Below, in pieces: positions 6,441-62,820 of a DNA stretch of 64,000 nucleotides; position 1 is the stretch's first letter; every line of letters begins with the position of its first letter. The notes under the pieces are model-generated. The model was not told where the DNA came from. It searched no databases and was given only the letters and a program-made list of their open reading frames with translations. Source of the DNA: Thermoanaerobaculia bacterium (lineage in GTDB: Bacteria; Acidobacteriota; Thermoanaerobaculia; Gp7-AA8); contig JBBRNB010000006.1 in assembly GCA_038230535.1 (NCBI GenBank), positions 10,531 to 74,530 on the forward strand, given 5' to 3'. The translations under genes were made by a program, and so were the position numbers.

Positions 6441-6940
6441 GGCACGCCTTCGGCGTGCGTTTTCTGCGCTGCGCGCGTTGTCGGCGTTGCACGCGTTTTC
6501 TGCGCTGCGCGCGTTTTCTGCGCTACGCGCGTTGTCGGTTGTCGGTTGTCTGCGGCCTGCGGGCCGCGTTGGCGCGTACGCTCTCGATCCTGGACAAACT
6601 CGATCAGGCCTTGCAGAGGGGCGGCGACACGGCGAATCGAACTTCGGAGCCGCCTCCACGTATCGTCGTCGATGTACTCGAGCCGGTGGGCGGCGATCAT
6701 CTGCGCCTGAACCTCGTACAACGACCCGCGCGCATGGCTGAGAAACTGCCGCCATTCACCGGGAGACAACCGTCCTTGTCCTTCTGCGATGTTGCTGACC
6801 ACCGACACAACTGCCCGCCGAAGCTGCTGCGTCAAACCGAATCGCTCGTCTCGCGGAAAGGCCTTGGTTGTCTTGTAGATAGCTACCATCAGATCGAGAG
6901 AGCGCTTGAATGTATCGAGATCTTCAAATGACCTGGTCAT
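6437..6940 (-). CDS. four-helix-bundle protein ('23S rRNA intervening-sequence protein' family), with a C-terminal tail encoded by the flanking repeat arm
   Basis: MTRSFEDLDTFKRSLDLMVAIYKTTKAFPRDERFGLTQQLRRAVVSVVSNIAEGQGR... matches the PF05635/TIGR02436-type family. ATG at 6940. The last roughly 45 aa (QPTTRVAQKTRAAQKTRA...) are a translation of the GCGCGAAGCGCAGACAAC repeat. Confidence 0.8.
   Translation of the reverse strand: MTRSFEDLDTFKRSLDLMVAIYKTTKAFPRDERFGLTQQLRRAVVSVVSNIAEGQGRLSPGEWRQFLSHARGSLYEVQAQMIAAHRLEYIDDDTWRRLRSSIRRVAAPLQGLIEFVQDRERTRQRGPQAADNRQPTTRVAQKTRAAQKTRATPTTRAAQKTHAEGVP
6442..6470 (+). terminator. putative Rho-independent terminator of the amidohydrolase gene
   Basis: GCACGCC-TTCG-GCGTGC stem-loop followed by GTTTTCT. 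Confidence 0.5.
6458..6557. repeat. left arm of inverted tandem-repeat element (units like CGCGTTGTCGG / TTCTGCGCTGCGCG)
   Basis: Tandem copies that are the reverse complement of the 7028-7155 arm. The same family occurs at 8275-8345 and 49586-49945. Confidence 0.75.
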
Positions 6941-7027
6941 CGCGTTTTGCGGTGCTACGGAGAGGAACGAGAGCGATCGAAAACGCAAGAGGCGACCTGC
7001 CGGTCACTCGGTGGGAACCAAATCATA

Positions 7028-7155
7028 CCATCCCACCGCCACTGACAACGCGCGAAACCGCAGACAACGCGCGAAGCGCAGACAACGCGTGAAGCCGCAG
7101 ACAACGCGCAAAGCGCAGACAACGCGTGAAGCCGCAGACAACGCGCAAAGCGCAG
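7028..7155. repeat. right arm of inverted tandem-repeat element (CGCAGACAACGCG(C/T)GAAGC x about 6)
   Basis: Roughly 22-bp units in tandem, complementary to 6458-6557. Together the arms bracket the IVS-protein gene. Confidence 0.8.
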
Positions 7156-9795: not shown

Positions 9796-10068
9796 GCGAT
9801 GCCTAAATGCTAGGGATCGATGCCTATTAACTAGGGATCGATGCCTAAGGATTAGGAATCGATGCCTATGAATTAGGGCTTGATGCCTGAAAGTTAGGAA
9901 TCGATGCCTAGTACTTAGAGATCGATGCCTAGGAGATAGGGATCGATGGCTAAAAGTCAGGGATCGATGCCTGTTAGATAGGAGTTGATCCCTAAAAGTT
10001 AGGGGTCGATGCCTAAGAGATAGACATCGATCTAGAAATCATGGATCGATCCCGGATCGATATTTGAG
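9796..10068. repeat. AT-rich tandem array, about 12 copies of a 21-bp period (16-bp core TAGGGATCGATGCCTA plus a roughly 5-nt variable spacer); iteron-like
   Basis: Read directly: TAGGGATCGATGCCTAttaac TAGGGATCGATGCCTAaggat TAGGAATCGATGCCTAtgaat ... The last copy is the perfect palindrome GGATCGATCC. Every unit contains GATC. Local GC is far below the window average. Lies 110-380 bp upstream of the start of the 8392-9684 gene. Confidence 0.85.
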
Positions 10069-10924: not shown

Positions 10925-11050
10925 AATGAGATGGGGTAGGCAGAAAGCAGAAAGCAGAAAGCAGAAAGCAGAAATGCTGCGCTACGCCCCACGTTTCGGC
11001 GTAGCGCAGCATTTCTGCCTTCTGCTTTCTGCCTTCTGCTTTCTGCTTTC
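10925..11050. repeat. hairpin element with (GCAGAAA)n / (TTTCTGC)n arms; convergent terminator between the MbtH gene and the 11051-11941 gene
   Basis: GCAGAAAGCAGAAAGCAGAAAGCAGAAAGCAGAAATGCTGCGCTACGCC-loop-GGCGTAGCGCAGCATTTCTGCCTTCTGCTTTCTGC... Confidence 0.8.
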
Positions 11051-11941
11051 TCAACCCCTCTCTAACTCCGCCCGATCCCAACCACCCGCGGCGGCGGCGG
11101 CGGCGTAGGTAGACTGGCAGAAGCGGAGGAGGGCATCCTCCGGGTCGGACGACATGCGGACGGCCTCATACGGGAGGACGTACTCGGAGAAGGCGTCGCT
11201 GTAGAAAGCTTCCGCCGGTTCGACGCGGGCGTCCTTGAAGCCGGCCGGCTGCGGGGCGGCGTAGGCGTAGAACGCCGGCGCGGGGAAGGCGCCGCCGCCG
11301 GGCCACCATCCGCAACTGCTGACCTCGTGTGAGTAAGCTTCGCGCGTGATCGGATCGGCGTTCGGATTGTCCGGGGCGCGGCGGCCGGAGAAGCGGGTGA
11401 CGGCCATGTCGAAGCTGCCCCAGAAGAAGTGTACGGGGCTGCTCTTGCCGATGAACGACGCGCGGAACTGGTTCAACAGGCGGTCGGTGAAAATCAGGAT
11501 GCGCCGGAAGCGTTCGACGGCGTCTCGGTCGTATGATGTGTGCTCATGGTCTTCGGCGAACGGAATCGGGTTGTCGATCTCGACCGGGACCGGCCAGATC
11601 TTGACGTCGATGCCGCACTCATGGAGACGCGCCATCGTCTCGGCGTAGAAATCGGCGACGGAGCGAGGGACGAGCGGCACCCGTCCGTGGCGGCCGTCGC
11701 TGCAGCGGATGACGAGTTGGTGATCGATGAAGTCGAATTCGCAGTCGAAGACGCGGCCGCGATACGGGATCGCCGATGTGGTCAGGCCCCTCGCGCTGAC
11801 GTAGAGCGCAGTGTCCCACCAGTGGTTCACCCGAGGAGCGAGAGCGAGGCGGACCTTGCCGGCGATCTGCGTCCACATGTGCAGAGTGTCGCAGGTCGGC
11901 TTCCAATCTGGCAGCGGCAGGGGATCAAGATCGTTGATCAT
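11051..11941 (-). CDS. conserved hypothetical protein (possibly DUF5996-like; family assignment uncertain)
   Basis: 296-aa ORF with ATG at 11941 (MINDLDPLPLPDWKPTCDTLHMWTQIAGKVRL...). No catalytic motif recognised. Confidence 0.65.
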   Translation of the reverse strand: MINDLDPLPLPDWKPTCDTLHMWTQIAGKVRLALAPRVNHWWDTALYVSARGLTTSAIPYRGRVFDCEFDFIDHQLVIRCSDGRHGRVPLVPRSVADFYAETMARLHECGIDVKIWPVPVEIDNPIPFAEDHEHTSYDRDAVERFRRILIFTDRLLNQFRASFIGKSSPVHFFWGSFDMAVTRFSGRRAPDNPNADPITREAYSHEVSSCGWWPGGGAFPAPAFYAYAAPQPAGFKDARVEPAEAFYSDAFSEYVLPYEAVRMSSDPEDALLRFCQSTYAAAAAAGGWDRAELERG

Positions 11942-12013: not shown

Positions 12014-13045
12014 ATGAACAGCACAAAGAGGTTAGCAGCGCAGATGGCCGGAGTGGTTGCGATTGCGACTCTCTTCGGAACGTCCGCTTTTGCGGACAGT
12101 CGTCACTCAGATGCGACGGAGCGCGATCGTTCCCACCATTCCGACAGGGGCGACAGCCGCGACAACGGCAGACATTCGAATGACCGGCGCGACAACAACA
12201 GCAATCAGTCGCAGACCTTTGAACGGCGCGATTTCCGGGGAAGTGCGCCGCAGACGTTCGAACGGCGCGATGTCCGGGGAAGTGCGCCGCAGACGTTCGA
12301 ACGGCGCGATTTCCGGGGAAGTGCGCCGCAGACCTTTGAACAGCGCGATATCCAGAGAAGCGCGACGCAGACGTTCGAGCGGCGCGATGTCCGCGATAAC
12401 GGGACGCGGTCGTTTGACCGCCGCGAACCCGCCAACAACTTCCGGAATGAGAGCCGCTCGCAGGCCGGGAACTTCCGCGGCAACGAGCGCTGGCAGGGTT
12501 CCCGGGATGACAACCGTTGGCAGGGTTCCCGGAATGACCGCCGGGAGGGCTCTCGAAATGAGCGTCCGTCGTTCGACGATCGTGGCCGCCGCAGCTCGTT
12601 CGTCGAGGGACGGGTCAAGCGCTTCGAACACGAACGGGGTGGTTTCCGCGTGTGGGTCGACGGCGGCCGTTTCCCGGTCTGGATTCCTGAAGCGCGCATC
12701 AATCTCTTCCCCCACCTGCGCGTCGGCGTGTCGCTCCGCTTTGGCGGCTACTACGATCCAGCCGGCTATCTCGATGCGTATGACTACTACGGCGGCCCGG
12801 CGTATGCCGGCGCGCCTGTCTACAGCTCCGGCTACCTGCGGGGAACCGTGGAGACTGTCGACTTTCGCCGCGGCACGCTGGTCATTCGCGATGAGACTTC
12901 CGGCGCCTTCGTAACGGCGGTCATCCGCGACCGCAGTCTGGAAACCCTGCGGCCCGGCGACTACGCCGAGATCGCCGGCGACTGGACCCGCAGCGGTCTC
13001 TTCGAAGGACTGCGTCTCGAAGATGTGCAAGGTGGGCGGTACTGA
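12014..13045 (+). CDS. secreted low-complexity protein with 5 tandem 13-aa repeats (QTFERRDFRGSAP) and a C-terminal globular domain
   Basis: AAAGGAGG RBS and ATG at 12014. Signal peptide MNSTKRLAAQMAGVVAIATLFGTSAFA. 39-bp nucleotide repeats at about 12200-12400. The upstream part of the track ORF is antisense to the neighbouring gene. Confidence 0.7.
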   Translation: MNSTKRLAAQMAGVVAIATLFGTSAFADSRHSDATERDRSHHSDRGDSRDNGRHSNDRRDNNSNQSQTFERRDFRGSAPQTFERRDVRGSAPQTFERRDFRGSAPQTFEQRDIQRSATQTFERRDVRDNGTRSFDRREPANNFRNESRSQAGNFRGNERWQGSRDDNRWQGSRNDRREGSRNERPSFDDRGRRSSFVEGRVKRFEHERGGFRVWVDGGRFPVWIPEARINLFPHLRVGVSLRFGGYYDPAGYLDAYDYYGGPAYAGAPVYSSGYLRGTVETVDFRRGTLVIRDETSGAFVTAVIRDRSLETLRPGDYAEIAGDWTRSGLFEGLRLEDVQGGRY

Positions 13046-13094: not shown

Positions 13095-13230
13095 TTTGTG
13101 TTTTGCGGTCTCGCGGGGTGCTGGGTCTCGCGGTCTCGGGGTTGCCTGGTTGCTGGGTTGTAGGGTTGGTTCAACATCTCTCCGACAACCACGCAACCCT
13201 GCTACCGAGCAACTCCGCAACCTCGCAACC
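13095..13230. repeat. hairpin element of the GTTGCTGGGTTG / CAACCCAGCAAC family
   Basis: GGTCTCGCGG-containing loop flanked by CTGGGTTGC-type units and their complements (GCAACCCTGCTACCGAGCAACTCCGCAACC). Confidence 0.7.
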
Positions 13231-14072: not shown

Positions 14073-14240
14073 TGTCAGTGGATCAGTAGGTCAGTGGATC
14101 AGTGGATCAGGAACATGCTGGTCGTTGGGTCCTGATCCTGATTCTCTGGTCAACTCATCAAGTCGTTGTTTCGATCAGAAACGAGAGGTCTTCTGATCCT
14201 GATCCACTGATCCACGAACCACCGATCCACTCACTGAATC
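14073..14240. repeat. hairpin element of the GATCAGTG / CACTGATC family
   Basis: GTCAGTGGATCAGTAGGTCAGTGGATCAGTGGATCAGG...loop...CTGATCCTGATCCACTGATCCACGAACCACCGATCCACTCACTG. Confidence 0.8.
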
Positions 14241-18847: not shown

Positions 18848-19711
18848 CTACGACACCCTCTTCAACGCCTCGGCTACATCCTTCTGCTTCGGATTGAGTT
18901 TGAGCGAGAGTACGAAGCTCGCCTTTGCCTCGGCCTTTTTCCCTTGCTTCTCGAAGATCTGACCGAGCCAGTAGTGTGCGCGGGCGAGGGGAGGCTCGTC
19001 TTCCTTCGGTGTGTAGGCGATGTATTTGCGGAGCATCTCTTCGCCGTGAGGGAGGTTGGTGTTGGAGAGAACGGCGAGCTGTCCGATACGGAAGGTTGCC
19101 GGCATGTAGGTGGCGTCCACCTTGAGGGCGGTCTCGAGCTCTTCACCGGCGGCTTTGTAGTTCTTCTCGGTACTCGCGTAGTACAACCCCAGGTCCAGGT
19201 GCGCGCGAGCTGATTTCGGGAACTCCCTGACTTCGTCGATGTACTCCTTCCTAACGAGGTCGGGTTTCTTCTGATGCGAGTAGATGAACGCCGCGGAGCG
19301 GTGCGCCATCATCGGATCGCGCTTGCGGATCTCGTCAACCTGTGCGAAGGCTTTGTCGTAGCTGCCGCCCATGATGCCCGGTGCGATGGTGTAGTACTCG
19401 ATAAGGCTGGAGCGGGCTTCGAGAAGGTTCGGATCGAGGGCGACGGCCTGTTCGAATTCGGACTTGGTCTTCGACGCGAGGGAAGCCTGGCTGAAGATGT
19501 TCGCCTCCTCGGCCTGCGATCCGTATGCGTTGCCGAGCCAGAGATGCGCCTCGGCGCTCTTTGGACTCTGCGCTACAGCCTTCTCGAAAAGTGACGCGGC
19601 TGTCGCGTAGTCATTCCGAGCCATGGCGGCACGGCCCTGATCGAGCAGCGAGTTTTGTGCGAACAGAGGAAGAACGATCAGCCCGGTCAGGAGGGCGAAC
19701 ATGTGGCGCAT
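18848..19711 (-). CDS. secreted TPR-repeat protein (paralog 1)
   Basis: Signal peptide plus TPR-like repeats. 287 aa and colinear with its neighbour (AHLWLGNAY, AHLDLGLYY, AHYWLGQIFEKQGKKAEAKASF). Confidence 0.8.
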   Translation of the reverse strand: MRHMFALLTGLIVLPLFAQNSLLDQGRAAMARNDYATAASLFEKAVAQSPKSAEAHLWLGNAYGSQAEEANIFSQASLASKTKSEFEQAVALDPNLLEARSSLIEYYTIAPGIMGGSYDKAFAQVDEIRKRDPMMAHRSAAFIYSHQKKPDLVRKEYIDEVREFPKSARAHLDLGLYYASTEKNYKAAGEELETALKVDATYMPATFRIGQLAVLSNTNLPHGEEMLRKYIAYTPKEDEPPLARAHYWLGQIFEKQGKKAEAKASFVLSLKLNPKQKDVAEALKRVS

Positions 19712-19753: not shown

Positions 19754-20617
19754 CTACGACACTCTCTTCAACGCTTCCGCCACATCCTTCTGATTCGGAT
19801 TGAGCTTGAGTGACGCCGCGAAGCTCGCCTTTGCCTCAGCCTTCTTTCCCTGCTTCTCGTAGATCTGGCCGAGCCAGTAGTGGGCACGGGCGAGCGGAGG
19901 ATCGTCCCCCTTCGGTGTGTAGGTGAGGTACTTGCGGAGCACCTCCTCGCCACGGGGGAAGTTCGTGCCGCTGAGAGCGGCGAGCTGTCCGATGCGGAAG
20001 AATGCTGCCATGTAGGCCGCGTCGATCTTCAGAGCGGCATCGAACTCGTCGCCGGCGGCTTTGAAGTTCTTCTCACTGTTCATGTAGAACAACCCGAGGT
20101 CGAGGTGAGCCCGTTGCGATTTCGGATTCTCCTTGACCTCGTCGAGGTATTCCTTCTTCGCCAGGTCGGGTTTCTTCTCGGAGGAGTGGACGAACGCGGC
20201 GGCGCGATGCCCCATCAGCGGGTCGCGTTTCCTGATCTCTTCCGCCTGAGCGAGCGCCTTGTCGACGCTGCCTCCCATCATGGAGGGCATGTTCGCGTAG
20301 ATTTGAACGAGCGCGTATCGAGCGTCGAGCAAGTTCGGGTCGAGCGCGACGGCCTGCTCGAACGCGTCCTTCCCTTTCGAACCGATCGAGGCGGCGCTGA
20401 ACATGCCTGCACTCTCGATCTGCAGTGCGTATGCCTTGCCGAGCCAGTAGTGCGCCTGGGCGTTCTTTGGACTCTGAGCGACGGCTTTCTCGAGTAGCGC
20501 GACCGCGCCATCTCCATCGTTCCTGGTAATTGCGGCGCGTCCCTGGTCGACGAGGGAGCTCTGAGCGAGTAGAGGTAGGACGATCAGTCCCGTGAGGACA
20601 GCGATTATCGTGCGCAT
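19754..20617 (-). CDS. secreted TPR-repeat protein (paralog 2)
   Basis: 287 aa, clearly homologous to 18848-19711 along its whole length (AHYWLGKAY, AHLDLGLFY, AHYWLGQIYEKQGKKAEAKASF). Confidence 0.8.
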   Translation of the reverse strand: MRTIIAVLTGLIVLPLLAQSSLVDQGRAAITRNDGDGAVALLEKAVAQSPKNAQAHYWLGKAYALQIESAGMFSAASIGSKGKDAFEQAVALDPNLLDARYALVQIYANMPSMMGGSVDKALAQAEEIRKRDPLMGHRAAAFVHSSEKKPDLAKKEYLDEVKENPKSQRAHLDLGLFYMNSEKNFKAAGDEFDAALKIDAAYMAAFFRIGQLAALSGTNFPRGEEVLRKYLTYTPKGDDPPLARAHYWLGQIYEKQGKKAEAKASFAASLKLNPNQKDVAEALKRVS

Positions 20618-20682: not shown

Positions 20683-22674
20683 ATGACTGAAGCGATTACT
20701 CTCGACTCTCGCCCGACCATCCCGATCTTCGACGCCGCCGCGCTGGCAACGGCGTCCGAGCGCGTGCTCGCCGAAGCCCGGCGCCGGCTGGGAGTGATCG
20801 AGCGGCTACCGCTCGAAAAGATCACGGCGCAGTCCGTGCTCGAGGCATGGGACCGGATGGCCATGGTGCTCGAGGACGCATACGGCCCGATCTCGCTCCT
20901 CAACAGCGTCCATCCTGATGCCGAGGTGCGCGATGCGGGTGACCGCGCCCTCATCGAAGAGTCCGTCTTCATGACGGATCTCTTTCAGAACGAACAGCTC
21001 TACGAACGCGTGCGCCGTGTCGAGCCGCGGACGAGCGCACAGAAGCAGTTGAAGAAAGATCTGCTGGAAGCGTTCGAGGACAGCGGTGTGGCACTGCCGT
21101 CGGAAAAGCGCCAGCGTTTCAAGGCGATCTCGGAACGCCTCACAGAGCTCTCCCAGGAGTTCAGCAAGAACATCCGCGAGAACAGAACCGTCCTCACGTT
21201 TACCCCCGAGGAGTGCCAGGGTCTGCCGCAGTCCTATCTGGAGCGGGTGGCGCGCGACGAACAGGGGAACATCGTCGTCGGCTTCGACTATCCAGACTAT
21301 GTCCCGTTCATGGCGAACGCCGCGAACGAGCAGGCGAGAAGGCGCTACTACATCGCCAATACGAACCGTGGTACGGCGCGGAACCTCGAGATTCTCGATG
21401 AGATCGTGGCGCTGAGAAAAGAGACCGGTGATCTCTACGAGGTTCCCAGTTACGCGCACTACGTCACGAAGCGCCGGATGGCCGGAGACCCCGAAACGGT
21501 GACCCGTTTTCTCGATGAGGTGAGAAATGCGGTTACCGAGGCCGAGCTGAATGACCTGCGGCAGCTCGCTGAAACGAAGGCAGAGCTGACTGGCTTGCCG
21601 GTCGAGCAGGTGCCGATCGAGCGGTGGGACGTTGTCTATTACCGCGAGCGTCTTCGGGAGAAGCGCTACGCCGTCGACCAGGAAGCGCTGCGCGAATACT
21701 TCCCGACCCTGCCGGCCGTGCATTGGATGCTGGACATTACCGAACGCCTCTACGGCATCCGCTTCAGCATGGCCAGCGTTCCCGTGTGGCACGACGACGT
21801 CATTTACTACGACGTCGATGATGTCGTCTCCGGCGAACGGATCGGCGGTATTTATCTCGATCTCTTCCCTCGCCCGGACAAGTACAAGCACGCGGCAGCA
21901 TGGCCGGTTCGCGGCGTCTCGAGCAGGGCCGGCCGCAAGCCCATCAGTGCCCTGGTCACGAATTTCAACCGGCAGGGGCTGACCCATAGCGAGCTCGAGA
22001 CGCTGCTTCACGAATTCGGGCACGTCATGCACGGCATCCTCTCCCGGACCGAATACAACCAGCATTCCGGCACGAGCGTGGAACGTGACTTCGTCGAGGC
22101 TCCGTCGCAGATGTACGAGGAGTGGGCCAGCCGCATGGAGAGCCTGGCGCTCATGCGCAACCACTGTCCGAACTGCCCGCTCATCGACGAGTCGCTCGTG
22201 CAACGGATCCGGGCGGCTGGGAAGTTTGGCTCGGGAGTCGACTACGGAAGGCAGCTTCTTTACGCCAGCTACGACATGGAACTGTGTGGATCGGGAGTCG
22301 GGAGTGGGGTATCAGGTATCGGAGATGAGCACGGTGCTTCTTCGACCCCGGACTCGCACTCCTTGAAGATCTGGAAACGGATGGAGGCCTCCACCCCCAT
22401 GGGTCACGTCGAAGGGACGGCATTTCCCGCCACCTTCGAACACATCGCCAGTGGCTATGCGGCGGGGTATTACGGTTACATGTGGGCGAAGGTGATCGCG
22501 CTCGATCTGATCTCGGCGTTCGGTCCTGACGTAATGAACGAGGCGACCGGCCTTCGTTTCCGTGAGTTGATTCTCTCGCGAGGCAGCGAGGAGCCGGCCC
22601 GCGATCTCGTTGAGCGCTTCCTCGGGCGGCCAGTTTCCAGCGAAGCATTTTTCGCGGAGATCCGCGGCGAGTAG
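20683..22674 (+). CDS. M3-family zinc metallopeptidase (oligopeptidase A / peptidyl-dipeptidase Dcp-like)
   Basis: HEFGHVMH HExxH motif with a downstream E (EAPSQMYEEW). Size is typical of M3A. Start taken at the ATG at 20683; the track start is a GTG at 20641. Confidence 0.85.
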   Translation: MTEAITLDSRPTIPIFDAAALATASERVLAEARRRLGVIERLPLEKITAQSVLEAWDRMAMVLEDAYGPISLLNSVHPDAEVRDAGDRALIEESVFMTDLFQNEQLYERVRRVEPRTSAQKQLKKDLLEAFEDSGVALPSEKRQRFKAISERLTELSQEFSKNIRENRTVLTFTPEECQGLPQSYLERVARDEQGNIVVGFDYPDYVPFMANAANEQARRRYYIANTNRGTARNLEILDEIVALRKETGDLYEVPSYAHYVTKRRMAGDPETVTRFLDEVRNAVTEAELNDLRQLAETKAELTGLPVEQVPIERWDVVYYRERLREKRYAVDQEALREYFPTLPAVHWMLDITERLYGIRFSMASVPVWHDDVIYYDVDDVVSGERIGGIYLDLFPRPDKYKHAAAWPVRGVSSRAGRKPISALVTNFNRQGLTHSELETLLHEFGHVMHGILSRTEYNQHSGTSVERDFVEAPSQMYEEWASRMESLALMRNHCPNCPLIDESLVQRIRAAGKFGSGVDYGRQLLYASYDMELCGSGVGSGVSGIGDEHGASSTPDSHSLKIWKRMEASTPMGHVEGTAFPATFEHIASGYAAGYYGYMWAKVIALDLISAFGPDVMNEATGLRFRELILSRGSEEPARDLVERFLGRPVSSEAFFAEIRGE

Positions 22675-30394: not shown

Positions 30395-30590
30395 TAGTCG
30401 ATCAGTGGGCTGGTCGATCAGTAGATTGGTCGATCAGTAGATCAGAAACATGAAACCTGATCCTGATCCACTGATCCACCGCGGTCCCTGATCCACTGAT
30501 CTACTGATCCACTGATCCACTGATCCACTGATCCACTGATCCACTGATCCACCGCGGTCCCTGATCCACCGATCACTGATCCACAGCATC
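30395..30590. repeat. large hairpin element of the GATCAGTG / CACTGATC family
   Basis: GTCGATCAGTGGGCTGGTCGATCAGTAGATTGGTCGATCAGTAGATCAG...loop...(CCACTGATC)x6. Confidence 0.85.
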
Positions 30591-31451
30591 CACCGCCTTC
30601 AAGAACCCAATCATCAACTCATTCACTTTCCCTGGCGCATCGGTCTGGACGAAGTGACCAGCGTCGGGGACGTGCTCGAGACGGAGGTCGGGGACGTACT
30701 CGCTGAAATCGCGCAGAGTCTCCTTCGTGAAAAACGGATCGAGATCGCCCCAGATCATCAAGGTCGGGATGTCGATGCGGCGAATCAAGCCGCGCATCGG
30801 TTTGCGGTGCCTCATGGCGCGGTAGTAGTTGGCCATGCCGGTGAGCGCGCCGGGCTTCGCCCATGCCTCGACATACCTCTCGATCTCCTCGGAGGTGAAG
30901 CAGCCGAGTCGTGACATGGCACGGCGCAGGACGGCGTAGCGGAAACGGCGCAGGACGAATTCCGCCAGCCATGGCAGATGGAAAAGGAGCTGATACTTGG
31001 CCCGCCACTTCTGCCGCGCCGACCGCCGCAGCTCGCGCAGGTATGTCACCGGATGCGGCGAATTGAGGATGATGAGACGGCTGACCAGCTCAGGATAGAG
31101 CATCGCCGTCAGCCAGGCCACGGCGCCACCCCAGTCATGGCCTGCCAGCGCGCACGGTGCGTCGCCACTCTGCGCGATCACGCCCGCGATGTCTTTGGCA
31201 AGCTCAGTAAGGCGGTAGGCGTCAATTTCCTGAGGCCTGGATGAGTCGTTGTAGCCCCGCAGGTCGACTGCGATGACGTGAAAGCCCGCCGCGGCGAGCA
31301 CCGGAATCTGATTCCTCCACGAATACCAGAACTCCGGGAAACCATGCAGCAGCACGATGAGCGGACCGCTCCCCGCCTCGACATAGTGGATGGTCATGCC
31401 GCCGACCTCGCACGTACGGTCGGTGACACTCAGTTCCGAAACCAGCTGCAT
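30573..31451 (-). CDS. alpha/beta hydrolase (epoxide hydrolase-like)
   Basis: HGFPEFWYSWR, GHDWGG nucleophile elbow and a C-terminal DAGHFV catalytic His. ATG at 31451 (MQLVSELS). The 162-codon upstream ORF extension translates the 21-bp repeat as heptads and was not annotated as coding. Confidence 0.85.
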   Translation of the reverse strand: MQLVSELSVTDRTCEVGGMTIHYVEAGSGPLIVLLHGFPEFWYSWRNQIPVLAAAGFHVIAVDLRGYNDSSRPQEIDAYRLTELAKDIAGVIAQSGDAPCALAGHDWGGAVAWLTAMLYPELVSRLIILNSPHPVTYLRELRRSARQKWRAKYQLLFHLPWLAEFVLRRFRYAVLRRAMSRLGCFTSEEIERYVEAWAKPGALTGMANYYRAMRHRKPMRGLIRRIDIPTLMIWGDLDPFFTKETLRDFSEYVPDLRLEHVPDAGHFVQTDAPGKVNELMIGFLKAVDAVDQ

Positions 31452-31611
31452 TGAGACATTGTATGGGAGCAGAGGAGGAGCCCACGCGAATGACTGTTGC
31501 CGGCCGAAGTCTGTGTCTGGGTTTGCGCGCGGGATCTCGCGAGCGAAGGTGCCGCTCCGCGGCACGCATTCGCCGTCTGTTTTGGGTTGGGGGGCACCAG
31601 CCCGCGCTGTG

Positions 31612-31905
31612 AAACGCCTGGCGCACACTGTCAGCCGGTGGCGCGCACTGTGAGCCGGGTGGCGCGCACTGTGAGCTGGGCGGCGCGCACTGTGAGCCGG
31701 GTGGCGCGCACTGTGAGCCGGGTGGCGCGCACTGTGAGCCGGGTGGCGCGCACTGTGAGCCGGGTGGCGCACACTGTCGGCCGGGCGGCGCACACTGTGA
31801 GCCGGGTGGCGCGCACTGTGAGCCGGGTGGCGCACACTGTCGGCCGGGCGGCGCACACTGTGAGCCGGGTGGCGCACACTGTGAGCCGGGCGGCGCACAC
31901 TGTGA
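31612..31905. repeat. 21-bp tandem repeat x about 14 (GGCGCGCACTGTGAGCCGGGT and variants)
   Basis: Read directly. The period is exactly 21 bp and sits in frame with the downstream hydrolase ORF, giving PAHS(V/A)R(H/R) heptads on the minus strand. Confidence 0.9.
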
Positions 31906-32248
31906 ATTGGGGTGATTGCCCTGCGGGCGGGATACACACCTTCGGCACCCTTCGACTCGCTGCGTTCGCTCAGGGCAGGCTCTTCTCCCCGCTGCGGAGG
32001 GGAGAAGGCGATCGATTGTAAGTTGTTGTTATAGCTGCACTTTCACATCGATGCCCCTCGCCCCACGAAGTGGGGAGAGGGAGACACGGACCCTGAGTGC
32101 AGCGAAGGGGGAGTGCGGGTGAGGGGCTGGAGTCAAGGCCTGAAGCCGGGGGGCTACGGATCTCATGCCGGCTCCGTCGGCGAAGACGAGCCAAAACATA
32201 CGCATGGCTCTTCGCACGACCGAATCGTCCGGACTCCAGTCCCTCTAC

Positions 32249-34118: not shown

Positions 34119-35138
34119 ATGCCCCCCTCCCCACCCACCTGGCAATTCGAAGGCGTCGTAAGGCTGACGCGCATCGGCACCTCGTTTGTCGTCTTCACAG
34201 TCGTCATCGGGTTCGCGGCCATCAATACCGGCAACAACTCTCTCTACATCGGGCTCTCCTTCCTGCTCGGTTGTCTGCTCCTGTCGGGCATCGCTTCGAA
34301 GGGCGGTCTCGAGCATCTCGTCGTGGAGCTCGACGGCATCGACGAGGCGTGGGCGATGCGGACGGCGCACGGGCGGCTTCGCATCATCAATCGTTCGCGG
34401 ATCTGGAACGTGCGTGACGTGATTCTGACTTCTGACGACCTGGCCGCACCGCTCTCCCTCCCGCTGATCGAGCGCCGCGGCGAGGTCGTGGCACACGCGC
34501 AGTTCCGCTTTCGCCGCCGCGGCCTCGTGCAACCCAGCCGCGTCGGTCTTTACACCCGCTACCCGTTTGGCTTTTTCCTGAAGAAGCGCCGCGTGCGGCT
34601 GTCCGGCGATGTCGTCGTGTTTCCCCGGCTTCTCGACGAGGATGTTGTTCGCGATCGTTTTCGTGCGATCGAAGGGGAGTTGCATTCATCCAACCGCGTT
34701 GGCGGCGGTACCGAGCTTCACTCTTTTCGCGACTACGTCCGCGGCGACTCTCTCCGCCGGGTCCACTGGAAGAAGTCCGCATCCCTCGGGCGCTGGATCA
34801 TCAAGCAGACCGAGATCGAGGCCGGCCGATCGGTACACGTCGTCGTCGACCCGTACCGGCCGGGGGGTGTGAGCGAAGAGGAATTCGAAGAGATGATCAG
34901 CGAGGCCGCGACGTTCCTCGATGGCGCGCTGCGAGGGGAGCTCGAGATCGCCTTCTCCATCCCTGCGATGACCCTTCGTTCTGACCGTGATACCGAAGCG
35001 TCGATGTTCCGCGCTCTGGCGTTACTCGAAGCGACGCGTGAGCCGATTGCTCAGGTGGTCGATGGGGATAGCGTTGTGTTTAGCGTGTCGCAATACGCGC
35101 GTGTCGGGAGTCGGGTGCCGGGGGTCGGAGGTGGCTGA
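34119..35138 (+). CDS. DUF58 domain protein
   Basis: DSLRRVHWKKSASLGRW matches the D.R.IHW..SAR DUF58 motif. Two N-terminal TM helices. Start taken at the ATG at 34119; the track start is a TTG at 34041. Confidence 0.8.
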   Translation: MPPSPPTWQFEGVVRLTRIGTSFVVFTVVIGFAAINTGNNSLYIGLSFLLGCLLLSGIASKGGLEHLVVELDGIDEAWAMRTAHGRLRIINRSRIWNVRDVILTSDDLAAPLSLPLIERRGEVVAHAQFRFRRRGLVQPSRVGLYTRYPFGFFLKKRRVRLSGDVVVFPRLLDEDVVRDRFRAIEGELHSSNRVGGGTELHSFRDYVRGDSLRRVHWKKSASLGRWIIKQTEIEAGRSVHVVVDPYRPGGVSEEEFEEMISEAATFLDGALRGELEIAFSIPAMTLRSDRDTEASMFRALALLEATREPIAQVVDGDSVVFSVSQYARVGSRVPGVGGG

Positions 35139-35283
35139 CGTGGAGCGGCGCTTCTCGAGAGAGACAGAGGTCTTGTCTGCGGGAGTCGGGGGGCGGGCGT
35201 CGCGCGTCGGAGAAGCTGTCTCCGACCCCCGACCCCCGACAGCCGGCACCCGTCATCGCGACCTCGAGCTCCTCTTCTTCACA

Positions 35284-37191
35284 ATGTTTGCCGCGATCCC
35301 GCTGTACGCGACGCAGACGATCTCGGCGCCGTCGCTGCTGGCCTTTCACGCAATGATGCTGGCGATCGCGGTTCGTGTAGCGCGCGGGAAGGGACCGGAA
35401 GTCGTTCCGGCGATCGTCATGCGCGTTCTGGCGGCCGCGTACGTCCCGTTCTACATCATCGATGCGGCAGTGATCTCGCGCAGCGCCATCGCCGCGTCGA
35501 CGCATCTCATCCTCTTCATCGCCGCGTACCAGCCGATCGAATCGACGCGGACGCCCAACACCGCACAGCGCCTGCTCACGGCATCGCTCATCTTCACCGC
35601 CAGCGTGGCCACGTCGACACACATCGCCATCCTTCCGTTCGTCATCCTCTTCGGATTCCTCCTGCTGCGGCAGCTCATGCACGTCAGCCACGAAGAGACC
35701 GCGAAGATGACCGGTGTTCCGGCTCACGCACTGCCGTCCGGCCGTGCCGCTGCGTTCTACGTCTGTGGCGCGATGTTCATCGGCGTTCTTCTCTTTCCGA
35801 TGCTGCCGCGTGTCCGCAATCCGCTGCTCCCGGGGATGTCAGGGCCGCTCAACAACGCCGCGACGGGCCTCAGCGACTCGATCAACCTCAACGAGCCGCG
35901 GTCGATCAGCAGCGACGCCACCGTGGTCAGCCGCATCTGGATGGGGCCGGAGACGATCCCGTTCTTCACGCCGTTGCGGCTGAAAGGGACGATCTACGAG
36001 CGATTTACGAACAACACCTGGCTGCAGGGACGGCGTGACTTCTACCCCCTCGAAAGCAGCGACGGCGCGACGCGGGTGGCACTGCCGGAGGGATTCACCA
36101 GGAAGGCCAGCGTGCAGCAGCGCTTCATTCTCGGGAGCCGTCTGTTTCTGCCGGTCGGCACCTACGAGGTCAGCGGCGCCGGTCAGATCGCGGAAGGGCC
36201 GACGCGCGACATCTTCACGGTCTGGCAGTCGCATCGCGACGTCGTCACCTACGACGTGGCTTTGGCGCACGAGACCACTTCGCGGCGGCCGCGGAATGTA
36301 GCAGTCTCGAATTATCCGGTGACGCCTGCGGTCCTCGCGCTGGCGCAGCAGATCGCTGGGCGCGAGACCGATCCCATGCGGCAGGCCGCGGCGGTCGAGC
36401 GGTACCTCTCCACCCGCTTCCGCTACGTGCCCGACCCATCGAAGATCGGACACTCCATGACTGTCGACCAGTTCCTGCTGCAGGAACGCCGCGGGCATTG
36501 CGAGTACTTTGCGGCCGGGATGGTGGCGCTGATGACGGCGCTCAACACCCCGGCGCGCATCGTTGGCGGCTTCTACGGTGGGACGCTCAATCCGTTGGCG
36601 GGCTACTTCATCATCCGCCGCGAGGACGCTCATGCATGGGTGGAGGTGTGGGACGGAAGGTTGTGGCAGACCTTCGACCCGACTCCCGCATCGCTCCGTC
36701 CCGGCAATACGCAGGATGGCCTGCTGCACATGTACGCATCCGCACTGTCGGACTCGGTGAACTATTTCTGGGACCGCCATATCCTTACATTCGGCCTGGG
36801 TGACCAGATCGCACTGGTGCTCGACCTTTACGGCCGCGTCCGCGGCTTGACTGTAGCGTCGAACGTCGTGCTGCGCAGCCCGGTCACCCGCAACCTGGCC
36901 TCGCTCATCGCCGTTCTCCTCATCGCCGGTTGCGCCTTCTTCGTCCTCTCACGCCGCCGCCGCACGCTCTTCGACCTTCTCGCCGCGCACATGCGCCGCT
37001 TCGGCATTCAGGTAGGTCCGGCGATGACGATGGCTGAGGCGTTGGACCAGCTGCGGTCGTTACACCCTGCCGCCGCGCTGGAGCTTGCCCCGCTGATCGA
37101 GCTCTACGAAGCGGAACGGTTTTCAGGTAATCCCGAAAAGGAGAGAGTGAAAAAAATTCGCAGGCGCCTGTCCGAGATCACGACTTCTTGA
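35284..37191 (+). CDS. transglutaminase-like (TGc) membrane protein with an N-terminal multi-TM (DUF3488-like) region
   Basis: Cys protease-like core GHCEYFAAGMVALMTALNTPARIV ... DAHAWVEVWDGRLWQTFDPT (C/H/D triad). 6-7 N-terminal TM helices. ATG at 35284; an earlier GTG start near 35140 is possible. Confidence 0.8.
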   Translation: MFAAIPLYATQTISAPSLLAFHAMMLAIAVRVARGKGPEVVPAIVMRVLAAAYVPFYIIDAAVISRSAIAASTHLILFIAAYQPIESTRTPNTAQRLLTASLIFTASVATSTHIAILPFVILFGFLLLRQLMHVSHEETAKMTGVPAHALPSGRAAAFYVCGAMFIGVLLFPMLPRVRNPLLPGMSGPLNNAATGLSDSINLNEPRSISSDATVVSRIWMGPETIPFFTPLRLKGTIYERFTNNTWLQGRRDFYPLESSDGATRVALPEGFTRKASVQQRFILGSRLFLPVGTYEVSGAGQIAEGPTRDIFTVWQSHRDVVTYDVALAHETTSRRPRNVAVSNYPVTPAVLALAQQIAGRETDPMRQAAAVERYLSTRFRYVPDPSKIGHSMTVDQFLLQERRGHCEYFAAGMVALMTALNTPARIVGGFYGGTLNPLAGYFIIRREDAHAWVEVWDGRLWQTFDPTPASLRPGNTQDGLLHMYASALSDSVNYFWDRHILTFGLGDQIALVLDLYGRVRGLTVASNVVLRSPVTRNLASLIAVLLIAGCAFFVLSRRRRTLFDLLAAHMRRFGIQVGPAMTMAEALDQLRSLHPAAALELAPLIELYEAERFSGNPEKERVKKIRRRLSEITTS

Positions 37192-41006: not shown

Positions 41007-41135
41007 TTCTGGGTCTCGTGGTTGCCGAGCTGCTCGCATAGGTTGCCAGGTTGCTGGGTTGCTCGGTACGCTGCGCGGAATGGTTACTTCCAAGAACGGG
41101 CAACCTGGCAACTCAGCAACCCAGCAACCAACCAA
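41000..41135. repeat. GTTGCTGGGTTG / CAACCCAGCAAC-family hairpin; the right arm overlaps the cinA start region
   Basis: GGTTGCCAGGTTGCTGGGTTGCTCGG...GGCAACCTGGCAACTCAGCAACCCAGCAACCAACC. Confidence 0.7.
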
Positions 41136-46439: not shown

Positions 46440-46590
46440 GTGTGAATCAGTGGGTCAGTGGATCAGTGGTCAGTGGTCAGTGGGTCAGTGGGTCAGTGGG
46501 TCAGTGGGTCAGTGGACGGACAGAAACAGCATTCTCCCGATCTACCGATCACGAATCGACTGATCCACTTGATTACTGCCTCATCGCAAC
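46440..46590. repeat. GTCAGTGG-family hairpin inserted between dxr and rseP
   Basis: (GGTCAGTGG)x8 ... GATCTACCGATCACGAATCGACTGATCCACTTGA. Confidence 0.8.
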
Positions 46591-47744: not shown

Positions 47745-47880
47745 GTGGATCGGTCGATCAGCGGCTGGTGGTTCAAAGCAGTGGATCGGTCGATCAGTCG
47801 GCCAGTGGATCTGGATCAGAATACCAAGTGTTCCTGATCCGCTAGTCTACCGATCCACTAGTCTGCTTATCCACTGATCC
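47745..47880. repeat. GATCAGTG-family hairpin (degenerate) between cdsA and dxr
   Basis: GATCGGTCGATCAGCGGCTGGTGG...CAGTGGATCGGTCGATCAGTCGGCCAGTGGATCTGGATCAG...CTGATCCGCTAGTCTACCGATCCACTAG. Confidence 0.65.
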
Positions 47881-49585: not shown

Positions 49586-49945
49586 AGCTTTGTGGTTAAT
49601 TGCACTTTGTTGTCTGCGCTTCGCGCGTTGTCGGTTGCCGGTTGTCTGCGCTTCGCGCGTTGCCGGTTGCCGGTTGTCTGCGCTTCGCGCGTTGCCGGTA
49701 GTCGGTTGTCTGCGCTTCACGCGTTGCCGCACCGAGAGGGGCGCGAAGGTGTAACCATCGCCCGACGGGCCGCTAACGCCCAAAGGGCAGACAACGTGCG
49801 AAGCGCAGACAACGCCCAAAGGGCAGACAACGCGCGAAGCGCAGACAACGCCCGAAGGGCAAACAACGCCCAAAGGGCAGACAACGCGTGAGCGCAGACA
49901 ACGCCCGAAGCGCAGATAACCGACAACGCGCGAAGCGCAGACTAC
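49586..49945. repeat. cargo-less palindromic element of the GCGCGAAGCGCAGACAAC family (tandem-repeat arms in inverted orientation around a roughly 50-bp centre)
   Basis: Left arm (GTTGTCTGCGCTTCGCGCGTTGCCGGTTGCCG)x4, right arm (GCAGACAACGCGCGAAGCGCAGACAACGCCCAAAGG)x4. Same family as the arms flanking the IVS-protein gene at 6458-7155. Confidence 0.85.
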
Positions 49946-49952
49946 GAAGGGC

Positions 49953-51465: not shown

Positions 51466-51927
51466 ATGAACTACTGGTTAATGAAGTGCGAGCCGTCCGC
51501 CTATACGATCGATGACCTCAAACAAGACGGCAAGACGAGTTGGGAAGGGGTCCGCAACTATCAGGCGCGCAACTTCATGCGCGATGGGATGAAGCGTGGC
51601 GACCGCGTGCTCTTCTACGCCTCGAATGCCGATCCTTCCGGCGTCACGGGCGTGGCCGAGATCAGCCGCGAAGCCTACCCCGATCAGTTTGCCCTAAAGA
51701 AAGGGCACGAGTACTACGACGAGAAGTCGACCGCGGAGAACCCCATCTGGTACAGCGTCGACATCGGCTTCGTGGAGAGGTTCCCGCACATCGTGCCGCT
51801 GGATACGCTGAAGTCGGCGCGCGGTCTCGAAGAGATGGTGGTGACGAAGAAGGGGTCGCGTCTTTCGATCCAGCCGGTGACGAAGAGTGAGTTCGAGATC
51901 GTGGTGAAGCTGGGCCGTGCGAAGTGA
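51466..51927 (+). CDS. EVE (PUA-like) domain protein
   Basis: [18 protein letters not shown]...[26 protein letters not shown] is the canonical EVE N-terminus. ATG at 51466. Confidence 0.85.
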
Positions 51928-52433
51928 CACGTTTCGAAGTCGTTCGAGCCGACATCACAAAGCTCGCGGTCGATGCGATCGTGAACGCAGCGAACTCGTC
52001 GCTCCTTGGCGGAGGCGGCGTCGACGGCGCGATCCACCGCGCGGCCGGCCCTGATCTCGTCGCCGCTTGCCGGCTCCTCGGGGGCTGCGCCACCGGCGAC
52101 GCGAAGATCACCCCCGGCTTTCGTCTGCCTGCGAAGTACGTCATCCACACCGTCGGCCCGGTCTGGCGTGGAGGCACCAACGATGAGCCGGAGTTGCTGG
52201 CCTCCTGCTACCGGCGCAGTCTCGAGGTGGCGATCGCGAACGGCGTCCGCTCGATCGCATTCCCCGCCATCAGTTGCGGCATCTTCGGCTATCCCCTCGA
52301 TGCCGCCGCGGAGATCGCGGTAAACGAGACGCGACGAGTGCTCGGCGAGAGCGATGCCGTCGATCAGGTTCTCTTCGTCGCGTTTGGCGAGGAGGTTCGG
52401 TTTGTTCTGGAGCGTTCTTTGCGTTTGTTGTAG
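51924..52433 (+). CDS. macro domain protein (O-acetyl-ADP-ribose deacetylase/MacroD-like)
   Basis: [24 protein letters not shown] and ...[15 protein letters not shown] motifs. GTG start overlaps the EVE stop (GTGA). Confidence 0.85.
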
Positions 52434-52585
52434 GGCTGGCCGGCAGTCCGCTGTCGGGTTGTGTACTTTGTCTCCAACTCCCGACACCACGACCCCCGAC
52501 AGCCGAGAGCTGATAGCCGAGAGCCCACTGCCAACAGCCAATAACCAGCTCCCACGCACGCCCCCGGTGTTACTCTAGATAAGTC

Positions 52586-53311
52586 ATGCCGAAGTTCTTC
52601 TTCTATGCAGGCACCGGCTTCTGTCTTTTCGTCGCGCTTTGCGCGGCGGCAGGGTTGATGTCGCAGGCGGAAGGGGGGCCGTTGGCATTCGTGGCGGTGC
52701 ATGGGTCGGTCGTGTCGGCGAAGAACGCGGCGGGATGGGCGATCGTCGTCGCGCTCATCGCCGGGATCGCCACCACGGCCATGCTGATCCGGATGGCAGC
52801 GCTGCTGGCGGCGCGGAATGTCTTCGGTGCGCTCTTCGCGCTGTTGACGACGTCCGCCGCCGTGGTCTCGCTGGCCTGGACGCTGCTGTTGCAGACGCGG
52901 ATGGTGATGCTCGTCCGCCACGGCTACGGATACGGTGAGATCGGGCAGCTTCACTTCGCCGCGTTGATGATGCTCGGTTGCTTCCTCTCGCTCACGTTCC
53001 TGGCGCTGCGGCCTTACTTCTCAGTGCAGGCCAGCCGAGTGCTCTCCGCGCTGGTCTTTTTTCCATTTCCGCTCTACTGCCTGATCCTGACGCAGGAGCT
53101 CTTCGTTTCGACGCGGCTCTCGCCATTGCCGGCCGCATCTCCCGCGGCGCTCGTCTTCTTCGGTGTCGTAGCCATGCTGTTTTTCGCCATCGCCATTCAC
53201 TGCATCCGGCACCGGCACATGTTCATCGAGACGACGAACCTCCGCGAGCTGCTCGACACACGCGTCGACCGCTCCTCGCGCCCCATCGGCGGCGTGGCTT
53301 ACGACTCGTAG
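52586..53311 (+). CDS. hypothetical polytopic membrane protein
   Basis: 6-7 hydrophobic helices. No motif recognised. Confidence 0.55.
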   Translation: MPKFFFYAGTGFCLFVALCAAAGLMSQAEGGPLAFVAVHGSVVSAKNAAGWAIVVALIAGIATTAMLIRMAALLAARNVFGALFALLTTSAAVVSLAWTLLLQTRMVMLVRHGYGYGEIGQLHFAALMMLGCFLSLTFLALRPYFSVQASRVLSALVFFPFPLYCLILTQELFVSTRLSPLPAASPAALVFFGVVAMLFFAIAIHCIRHRHMFIETTNLRELLDTRVDRSSRPIGGVAYDS

Positions 53312-62700: not shown

Positions 62701-62820
62701 TCAGTTGACCTGATCCACCGATAACCGATCCACTGATCACCGATCACCGATCCACCGATCCACCGATCACCGATCCACTGATCGACTGACCCACTGATCC
62801 ACTGATCCACCGATCGACAT
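62590..62820. repeat. large GATCAGTG / CACTGATC-family hairpin
   Basis: (GGATCAGTG)x6 ... loop ... (CCGATCACCGATCCAC)-type units and CCACTGATCC copies. Confidence 0.85.

Follow-up and report, generated by a model that had tools for sequence, protein, structure and literature searches.

How does a palindromic DNA repeat that normally lies between genes come to stand within the reading frames of conserved proteins? This question is raised by a 64,000-nucleotide (nt) stretch of the genome of a Thermoanaerobaculia bacterium (GCA_038230535.1, contig JBBRNB010000006.1, positions 10,531 to 74,530; hereafter the window), in which a GGGAGTC-type heptamer palindrome is found between genes and also inside the genes for an M3 family oligopeptidase and for the alpha subunit of DNA polymerase III (DnaE). 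A first-pass annotation had proposed that members of this family sit as in-frame insertions in coding sequences, and the DNA and peptide sequences that it quoted were found in the window. Our results make it likely that a hairpin repeat, normally intergenic, landed in-frame in the M3 peptidase and DnaE genes and is translated there as a fast-changing floppy loop.

The Element in the M3 Peptidase Gene

The peptidase gene (20683-22674, + strand) encodes a thimet oligopeptidase-like protein of 663 amino acid residues (Pfam PF01432, E value 1.9e-93). Its start codon at 20683 agrees with the public gene call, and its closest solved structure is that of thimet oligopeptidase (PDB 1s4b, E value 2e-94). 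Downstream of the HEFGH motif, the gene carries a decayed in-frame GGGAGTC-type palindrome at 22291-22364 (+ strand), of which the G-rich arm (G-arm) is at 22291-22309, the loop has a GGTATCGGAGA core and the C-rich arm (C-arm) is at 22347-22364. Its DNA reads GGGAGTCGGGAGTGGGG at 22293-22309 and CCCCGGACTCGCACTCC at 22347-22363. The copy is translated as ELCGSGVGSGVSGIGDEHGASSTPDSHSLKIW, and the insert peptide stretch of the peptidase is MELCGSGVGSGVSGIGDEHGASSTPDSHSLK. The range of 22275-22330 given in the first-pass annotation included the left arm and the loop and ended too early, as the element extends to about 22364.

The insertion site was defined as the interval between the anchors YA.[FY]DM and W..ME, and was compared among 120 orthologous peptidases (the window protein and 119 others, 71-100% identical) and, at the DNA level, among 81 species-level orthologous loci. 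The site was exactly 39 nt (13 codons) long in 69 of the 81 loci and ranged from 66 to 252 nt (22-84 codons) in the other 12, which were the window and its closest relatives only. Similarly, 71 of the 120 proteins had 13 residues at the site (e.g., ALSGEQPRRSLDL) and the 49 closest ones had 19-83. The extra residues read GVGSRESGVG..., followed by ...PTPDSR.PTP, and some of the proteins also had VVGSRLSVVG...TTDNRQPTTDNRQ. These are exact three-frame translations of (GGGAGTC)n, (GACTCCC)n, (GGTTGTC)n and (GACAACC)n. Long hairpins with tandem-heptamer arms were found in 10 of the 12 filled loci, with folding energies of -53 to -145 kcal/mol; one other filled locus, L007, had -21 kcal/mol and no clear array. 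The arms co-varied across the orthologues, GGGAGTC being found with GACTCCC, GGGAGTG with CACTCCC and GGCTGTC with GACAGCC. In the loci L003, L004 and L147, moreover, the loop of the palindrome held a second, nested one, (GGTTATC/GGTTGTC)n...(CGACAAC)n. No heptamer array of any kind was found at the empty sites.

The site also varied among very close relatives, as the first-pass annotation had anticipated for strains. Proteins that were 99.8% identical outside the site had 38 versus 63-67 residues within it, and the L146 and L147 genes, which were 98.9% identical in nucleotide sequence, still differed by 81 nt of in-frame indels within the element. The indels between L146 and L147 remove the inner left arm and the outer right arm. 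Thus, once in a gene, the element loses its symmetry through frame-keeping deletions, and the window copy looks like the product of such deletions. With 18 codons (54 nt) more than an empty site, it is the third-shortest of the 12 filled sites and is a late-decay remnant.

The AlphaFold2 model of the window peptidase (41-row alignment) had a mean predicted local distance difference test (pLDDT) score of 82 and a predicted template modeling score of 0.84. In this model, the insert residues 535-558 form a predicted coil between the helices 517-534 and 559-569, of which residues 542-555 had pLDDT values below 50. The insert site, which is well past the HEFGH zinc motif, corresponds to a short loop in the alignment with thimet oligopeptidase 1s4b. 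Together with the orthologue comparison and the length polymorphism, this predicted loop supports the earlier suggestion that the repeat is tolerated as a flexible linker and drives changes in protein length.

The Element in DnaE

The dnaE gene (57127-60978, + strand) encodes a protein of 1283 residues with the PHP, DNA_pol3_alpha, finger, HHH_6 and OB domains of Pfam, for which an exact look-up returned no record. A well-preserved in-frame copy is located at 60518-60610 (+ strand), with the G-arm at 60518-60547 (GGGGGTC GGGAGTA GGGAGTC GGAGGTC) and the C-arm at 60581-60610. This copy carries GVGSRESEVVEDLQSDDDGSTTLDPPLPIPG, and the protein stretch over it is GVGSRESEVVEDLQ. It is a strong hairpin, with an RNA folding energy of -62.1 kcal/mol (z score -6.1) and a DNA z score of -4.2. 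The first-pass annotation had correctly recognized an in-frame element at 60515-60610 and had placed it in a C-terminal extension; it is found instead in the internal linker that joins the OB fold to the last domain. DnaE proteins of this class are about 1255-1355 residues long and all have a long, variable and acidic linker at this place.

After an NLGLF motif, the sequence ...DDISEAFNEAVASVAEE... is found in the distant relatives and in about half of the close ones, and the other half of the relatives with 86-91% identity have the element-coded GVGSRESGVGEE...LSPTPDPRLPTPD in its place. The latter was not found in any distant DnaE relative, which had a DAFNxAV-type sequence there. In L100, the element and the ancestral ISEAFNEAVA motif are found together, with the element upstream, which shows that the element was inserted. 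In L083, the element (2131-2472) has expanded to 342 nt. It includes two nested G-arms, and its four 51-nt repeats encode DEDDDLSPTPDPRLPTP. The DNA of the DnaE inserts is the same heptamer palindrome as that of the peptidase inserts. Judged from these alignments, the DnaE linker as a whole is ancestral, and the element within it alone is new.

The Repeat Family of the Window

The window has a G+C content of about 62% over its 64 kb, and its proteins match those of uncultured Thermoanaerobaculia of the phylum Acidobacteriota. It is unusually dense in one design, in which 7- or 8-nt units are repeated in tandem and followed by a short loop and the reverse-complement array. In a rough gene map based on codon-position G+C content, most of these palindromes were between genes and typically directly 3' of a stop codon. 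A scan of the whole window against Rfam at gathering thresholds matched no family.

The palindromes of the G/C-tract type (GGGAGTC / GGGAGTG / GTCGGGA ... GACTCCC / CCGACCC) are located at 2687-2789, 22291-22364, 35099-35252 and 60518-60610, and a GGCTGTC-type relative is located at about 52433-52545. Two of these five copies are in coding sequences, one is over a stop codon and two are intergenic. Their arm unit has the form GGNNGTC and is repeated in tandem as GGGAGTC, GGGGGTC, GGGAGTG, GGCTGTC, GGGTGTC or GGTTGTC, and the opposite arm is the reverse complement (GACNNCC). Period-7 GGGAGTC arrays were found at 22291-22309, 35103-35128 and 2687-2734, and those of the orthologues held 3-8 units. 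The window copies have only three clean G3 tracts each and the orthologues have four or more, the number at which a G-quadruplex can form. In every copy the G-arm precedes the C-arm, and the fold z scores ranged from -3.2 to -6.1, except for the decayed peptidase copy. In addition, many Thermoanaerobaculia copies share the inner core ...GTCGGAGA-loop-TCTCCGAC..., which was seen in peptidase copies, often in DnaE copies and in the intergenic copy at 35203-35230. The elements form a dispersed family of DNA hairpins.

The likeness among these copies exceeds chance, as the first-pass annotation had supposed. At two or fewer mismatches, GGGAGTCGGGAGT matched 16 places in the window, compared with 2.8 expected, and none of 100 shuffled sequences reached 16. 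The matches were clustered at 2687-2789, 22293, 35099-35237, 52477 and 60519-60609. This enrichment bears on the possibility that the two coding segments are ancestral low-complexity linkers, whose likeness to intergenic repeats is a by-product of composition. The long, variable acidic linker found class-wide in DnaE and the weak hairpin of the window peptidase copy would fit such an origin. The enrichment does not, and neither do the 69 peptidase loci fixed at 13 codons without any such sequence, the DAFNxAV-type sequence that takes the place of the element in distant DnaE proteins, or the near-perfect heptamer palindromes in the DNA of the orthologous inserts. An ancestral origin of the segments is already contradicted by these data and is extremely improbable, and the earlier proposal of lineage-specific insertions is supported by the alignments of both genes.

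Outside the window, related loci with a total of 1.07 Mb contained 74 heptamer or octamer palindromes. These loci were picked via the two host genes, peptidase and DnaE, rather than from whole genomes. Except for those in the two queried genes, nearly all of the palindromes were outside long open reading frames (ORFs). A first k-mer clustering of the inverted repeats was dropped because it was too permissive.

Stop-Free Units and the Reading Frame

Neither the units GGGAGTC, GGGGGTC, GGGAGTG, GGCTGTC, GGGTGTC and GGTTGTC nor their complements have a stop codon in any frame, and this property explains how they can be tolerated in coding sequence. Most other unit types tested from the window and the related loci, including GTGGATCA and TAGGTTGC, contain a stop codon. 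Any copy whose length is a multiple of three would therefore be read through, the G-arm giving a stretch rich in Gly, Ser, Val, Arg and Glu (GSRESGV) and the C-arm one rich in Pro, Thr, Asp, Ser and Arg (DSRLPTP). Selection would then act as a filter for frame. In L003, the left arm has the unit GGTTATC, of which the perfect complement, GATAACC, would create a TAA codon; the right arm reads GACAACC. The frame was thus kept at the expense of pairing, which argues for translation of the insert.

The L003 mismatch also speaks against the view that the insert is kept for an action of its hairpin or of a G-quadruplex in mRNA or DNA, such as a translation pause, an RNase site or the slowing of a replication fork, with the peptide being incidental. 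That the arms stay complementary while the unit sequence varies among orthologues agrees with such a function, as do the very stable hairpin of the DnaE copy and the finding that related GGGAATC repeats are transcribed and form G-quadruplexes in vitro (PMC4692102). Many alleles, however, lack one arm or most of the hairpin and still have an intact gene, and close relatives dispense with the insert altogether. Retention for a nucleic-acid function is therefore very improbable.

History of the Insertion Sites

The explanation that we favor is that of an intergenic hairpin repeat that entered coding DNA. In this lineage, the usual location of the element would be intergenic and mostly just past a stop codon, where it may act like repetitive extragenic palindromes (REPs) or terminator-type hairpins. 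Two copies would have reached coding DNA at places where extra residues are tolerated, one in the inter-helix loop of the peptidase and one in the putatively disordered acidic linker of DnaE. Afterward, the arrays grow and shrink, gain a second palindrome in the loop and decay by in-frame deletions, and such array turnover gives rise to length differences even among near-identical genes. Candidate routes of spread are transposition by a trans-acting enzyme and copy-in from other copies via template switching or gene conversion.

Several observations weigh against this explanation. The junctions between filled and empty alleles had no target-site duplication and thus no direct sign of transposition. 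No consistent GTAG, CTAC, CGTC or GACG tag was found at the element ends in 24 copies. The element was not cleanly added, as it replaces native codons, which are of the QPRK type in the peptidase and amount to about 16 residues in most DnaE alleles. Folded alone, the window peptidase copy had -34 kcal/mol and an RNA z score of -1.3, and 23 of 200 shuffled sequences were as stable. Because this hairpin is not significant by itself, the identity of the copy rests on the orthologues. Structure prediction, which agreed with a disordered loop in the peptidase as anticipated by the first-pass annotation, was uninformative for DnaE, since the model of its last 362 residues (12-row alignment) had a mean pLDDT of 45 and was unusable. 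Translation of the insert is deduced from frame conservation alone, and for those sequences that were retrieved as full-length ORFs this argument is in part circular. Finally, filled and empty alleles were interleaved within the inner clade of a neighbor-joining tree from which the site had been masked, and the empty alleles keep the ancestral pattern E-x-P-x-x-x-[LIM]-E. The flanks of the site, GGCGAGGGAG ... CTCCCTCCGCCTC, are inverted rather than direct, and no target-site duplication, such as flanks the terminal inverted repeats of a miniature inverted-repeat transposable element, was found at the site.

The interleaving is close. The empty protein P0051 was 95.7% identical to the filled protein P0012, and the empty locus L010 was grouped with the filled loci L002, L005 and L006 at 90-92% nucleotide identity, with normal flank identity up to the site. 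As the ancestral pattern of the empty alleles could not be rebuilt by deletion of the element, these alleles are not deletion products. A single gain followed by losses was thus rejected as the full history of the site. Either the site was filled on several occasions or alleles passed between lineages by recombination, two options that the flank identities do not separate. The peptidase and DnaE states agreed in all 4 cases in which both genes could be assigned to a single genome or contig. Both sites were filled in the window and in OY970380.1, and both were empty in a 162.5-kb contig and in CAWGEI010000003.1. This agreement fits a lineage-dependent activity of the element, though it is not independent of phylogeny.

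An alternative explanation is that the arrays grew in place from native sequence by replication slippage and hairpin-templated synthesis, without any incoming copy. The number of heptamer units does vary among close relatives, the native site (TCCGGCGAG...CCCGG) is G/C-rich and weakly self-complementary, and heptamers are the commonest class of long simple repeats in bacteria (PMC4679880). The absence of heptamer arrays from the empty sites argues against growth in place. So does the fact that two unrelated genes and intergenic copies share their units and the GTCGGAGA...TCTCCGAC core. Moreover, the nested palindrome, which is of another unit type, appears whole and not gradually. We therefore regard growth in place as improbable. 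A further reading is that of a mobile palindrome that seeks hairpins and inserts repeatedly and independently into the same small native coding hairpin and into the loops of earlier copies. It would account for the interleaving among 90-96% identical genes, for the nesting and for junctions that are identical in every lineage, and is offered tentatively as a possible but rather doubtful one.

Copies Outside or at the Edge of Genes

The first-pass annotation had named two further sites, at 35165-35245 and 52462-52500, as members of the same series. Neither is an in-frame insertion; rather, the arms of these palindromes can supply C-terminal tails and stop codons. The range 35165-35245 is only the inner part of a composite palindrome at the junction between the DUF58 and TgpA genes (35099-35252, + strand; z score -4.2 for the fold of 35090-35260), which has an outer G-arm at 35099-35131, a nested inner hairpin at about 35181-35221 and an outer C-arm at 35222-35252. 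As had been noted earlier, the palindrome includes the DUF58 stop codon (35136-35138). The outer G-arm encodes the last 13 codons of DUF58 (ARVGSRVPGVGGG*), and the remainder is upstream of the likely TgpA start at 35287, from which the Pfam TgpA_N match begins at residue 3.

The range 52462-52500, which had been taken for a C-tract half copy, is actually the right arm of a degenerate but full GGCTGTC / GACAGCC-type palindrome (about 52433-52545, + strand; z score -3.2 for the fold of 52400-52560). This palindrome is intergenic, between a macro-domain gene (51924-52433) and the ORF 52586-53311. The genes around it were assigned from codon-position G+C content and translations, and the macro-domain-like label was judged by eye. 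An ORF on the - strand (51714-52559) was rejected as a gene, as it had no Pfam match, and EVE-like and macro-domain-like ORFs (by eye) with coding-type G+C content at third codon positions are found on the + strand. The remaining intergenic copy (2687-2789, + strand), with (GGGAGTG)n and (CACTCCC / ACCCCCC)n arms, is between a divergent gene (1271-2668, - strand) and a GGDEF gene with a likely start at 2813, and its fold (2680-2795) had a DNA z score of -4.0. The ORF extensions 2627-2812 and 34987-35286, which would have provided two more in-frame copies, were rejected because the Pfam-supported proteins begin at 2813 and 35287, respectively.

Similar to the DUF58 site, an arm of a palindrome of another unit type supplies the end of an ORF. 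The left arm of the (GTGGATCA)n / (TGATCCAC)n palindrome at 62596-62815 encodes the tail SVDQWIGGSVDQWISGSVDQLISG of the ORF 60982-62700 (572 residues, no Pfam match). The right arm, which would give TGA stops, sits past the stop codon.

Other Repeats and Neighboring Genes

Further (GTGGATCA)n...(TGATCCAC)n palindromes are found at 14075-14231, 30397-30593, 46447-46569 and 47779-47875, a (GCAGAAA)5...(TTTCTGC)n palindrome is found at 10940-11051 and a (TAGGTTGC)...(GCAACCCA) palindrome is found at 41039-41129. Together with those of the unit GGGTTGCA and including one at 13139-13230, most of these 7-8-mer palindromes are located just past stop codons of convergent or co-directional genes, and they are probably REP- or terminator-like hairpins.

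Other repeats of the window differ in design. Two large composite arrays at 6453-7155 and 49609-49946 have 18-, 32- and 37-nt units around GACAACGCGCGAAGCGCA and GTTGTC(G/T), and are mutually reverse-complementary despite their 43-kb spacing (85-nt arms, 76% complementary). Eleven tandem 21-nt units (CGATGCCTAAAAGTTAGGGAT), each with a small palindrome, are found at 9797-10031 in a divergent intergenic region. Another array of about 13.7 tandem 21-nt units (TGGCGCACACTGTGAGCCGGG) is found at 31619-31905, reads on the minus strand as the 7-residue repeats PAHSVRH / PAHSARH and is at the 5' end of the ORF 30573-31937, where it is either N-terminal coding or upstream DNA. A 39-nt tandem repeat (12210-12426; 4.7 copies, 87% matches) overlaps long ORFs on both strands. 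Two adjacent genes (18848-19711 and 19754-20617) for tetratricopeptide-repeat proteins of 287 residues directly precede the peptidase gene. They share a 300-nt stretch at the same relative position with 81% identity and are thus a tandem duplication.

Comparison With Known Repeat Systems

The classic palindromes inserted in-frame at fold-compatible positions are the Rickettsia palindromic elements (RPEs; Ogata et al., 2000, summarized in PMC10969869 and PMC3733652). According to these summaries, RPEs, similar to the element studied here, are also intergenic, stand in-frame within unrelated conserved proteins, are absent from orthologues and add extra peptide at fold-compatible sites. The peptidase insert is likewise in a fold-compatible loop, a predicted coil of low pLDDT that aligns to a loop of 1s4b. 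The RPE families, however, are described there as about 100-150 bp long, with a consensus and an encoded peptide that are conserved, in an obligate intracellular alphaproteobacterium, whereas the element of this free-living soil acidobacterium has 7-nt units read in three frames and unrelated loops, and is hypervariable and nested. We therefore do not class it as an RPE, from which its architecture of tandem heptamer arms and unrelated loops and its Thermoanaerobaculia host set it apart.

In Xanthomonas, GGGAATC or (GGGANTN)n heptamers form 70-75 convergent inverted pairs per genome, of which 7-11% overlap ORFs, and form G-quadruplexes in vitro (Rehm et al., 2015; PMC4692102). They are mostly intergenic and near the 3' end of the upstream ORF, and the Nostoc unit is GGGGA(C/T)T (PMC4692102). 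GGGAGTC fits GGGANTN, and the element shares with these heptamers the tandem arrangement of at least two units (14 bp) with variable copy number and the convergent inverted pairs. Different from them, several sister unit types (GGCTGTC, GGTTGTC and 8-mers such as GTGGATCA) co-occur here, and PMC4692102 has no analysis of in-frame translated copies, presence or absence in orthologues, nesting or location in protein loops. The element is also like intragenic REPs, which are short palindromes that are mostly intergenic and downstream of genes (Di Nocera et al., 2013; PMC3733652). In some cases, the stop codon of a gene is provided by the end of a REP (PMC3733652), and the element does the same for DUF58. 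REPs, however, are single stem-loops of 20-40 bp with GTAG/CGTC tags and a link to REP-associated tyrosine transposases, whereas the arms here are tandem arrays and the ends of the 24 copies are untagged.

Our literature search found no paper on repeats in Thermoanaerobaculia. Repeat units within the ORFs of Borgs are reportedly multiples of 3 in length. The abstract of PMC9879509 describes Borg repeats as fast-evolving DNA repeats that are also intergenic and add disordered stretches to proteins, as the element would do; it also describes them as direct tandem repeats, whereas inverted arrays of a 7-nt unit are found here. In-frame translated and hypervariable palindromes with heptamer arms, the nesting of such palindromes, the interleaving of filled and empty alleles at a single site and the occurrence in Thermoanaerobaculia appear to be undescribed in the papers that were searched. 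Thus, the kind of event is known, and the element type and the lineage are new.

A search with the idealized repeat peptide returned proteins (P0241-P0360) that were mostly "hypothetical proteins" of 45-100 residues, dozens of them, from Moorena, Xanthomonas oryzae, Spirulina subsalsa, Burkholderia cepacia, Vulcaniibacterium and others. Runs of GSRESGV or DSRLPTP were present in all 13 that were inspected, and these small proteins are probably translated (GGGAGTC)n repeats and thus annotation artifacts. A profile of 12 real inserts had 46 matches among 1.84 billion representative proteins, some of which are real domain proteins. For instance, a Ser/Thr kinase-WD40 protein (L149, 1150-1275) has a perfect in-frame palindrome (-87 kcal/mol) that encodes TGVGSRESGVGRAGSSPTPDSRFPTPE between the HRDLKPANIL catalytic loop and the DFG motif. 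An N6-DNA methylase of Gemmatales (Planctomycetota) has two perfect in-frame nested copies (L150, 418-624 and 1348-1515), and a protein that clusters with a Terriglobia hypothetical protein also has two copies.

Biological Implications

For annotation, these results suggest that apparent linkers of metagenome proteins that are rich in Gly, Ser and Val or in Pro, Thr and Asp may in fact be repeat DNA. Strains of soil Thermoanaerobaculia could be told apart by means of the filled and empty alleles. Freedom from stop codons in every frame provides a simple rule for the entry of repeat families into genes. The question with the most potential is by which route the element reached the same coding site in separate lineages. 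If the hairpin-seeking insertion considered above were true, new disordered protein segments would be generated by the element across phyla, among them the one in the kinase catalytic core and the two in the planctomycete methylase. More generally, selfish or structural intergenic hairpins can enter essential proteins of free-living bacteria, the replicative polymerase included, and then become hypervariable disordered loops.

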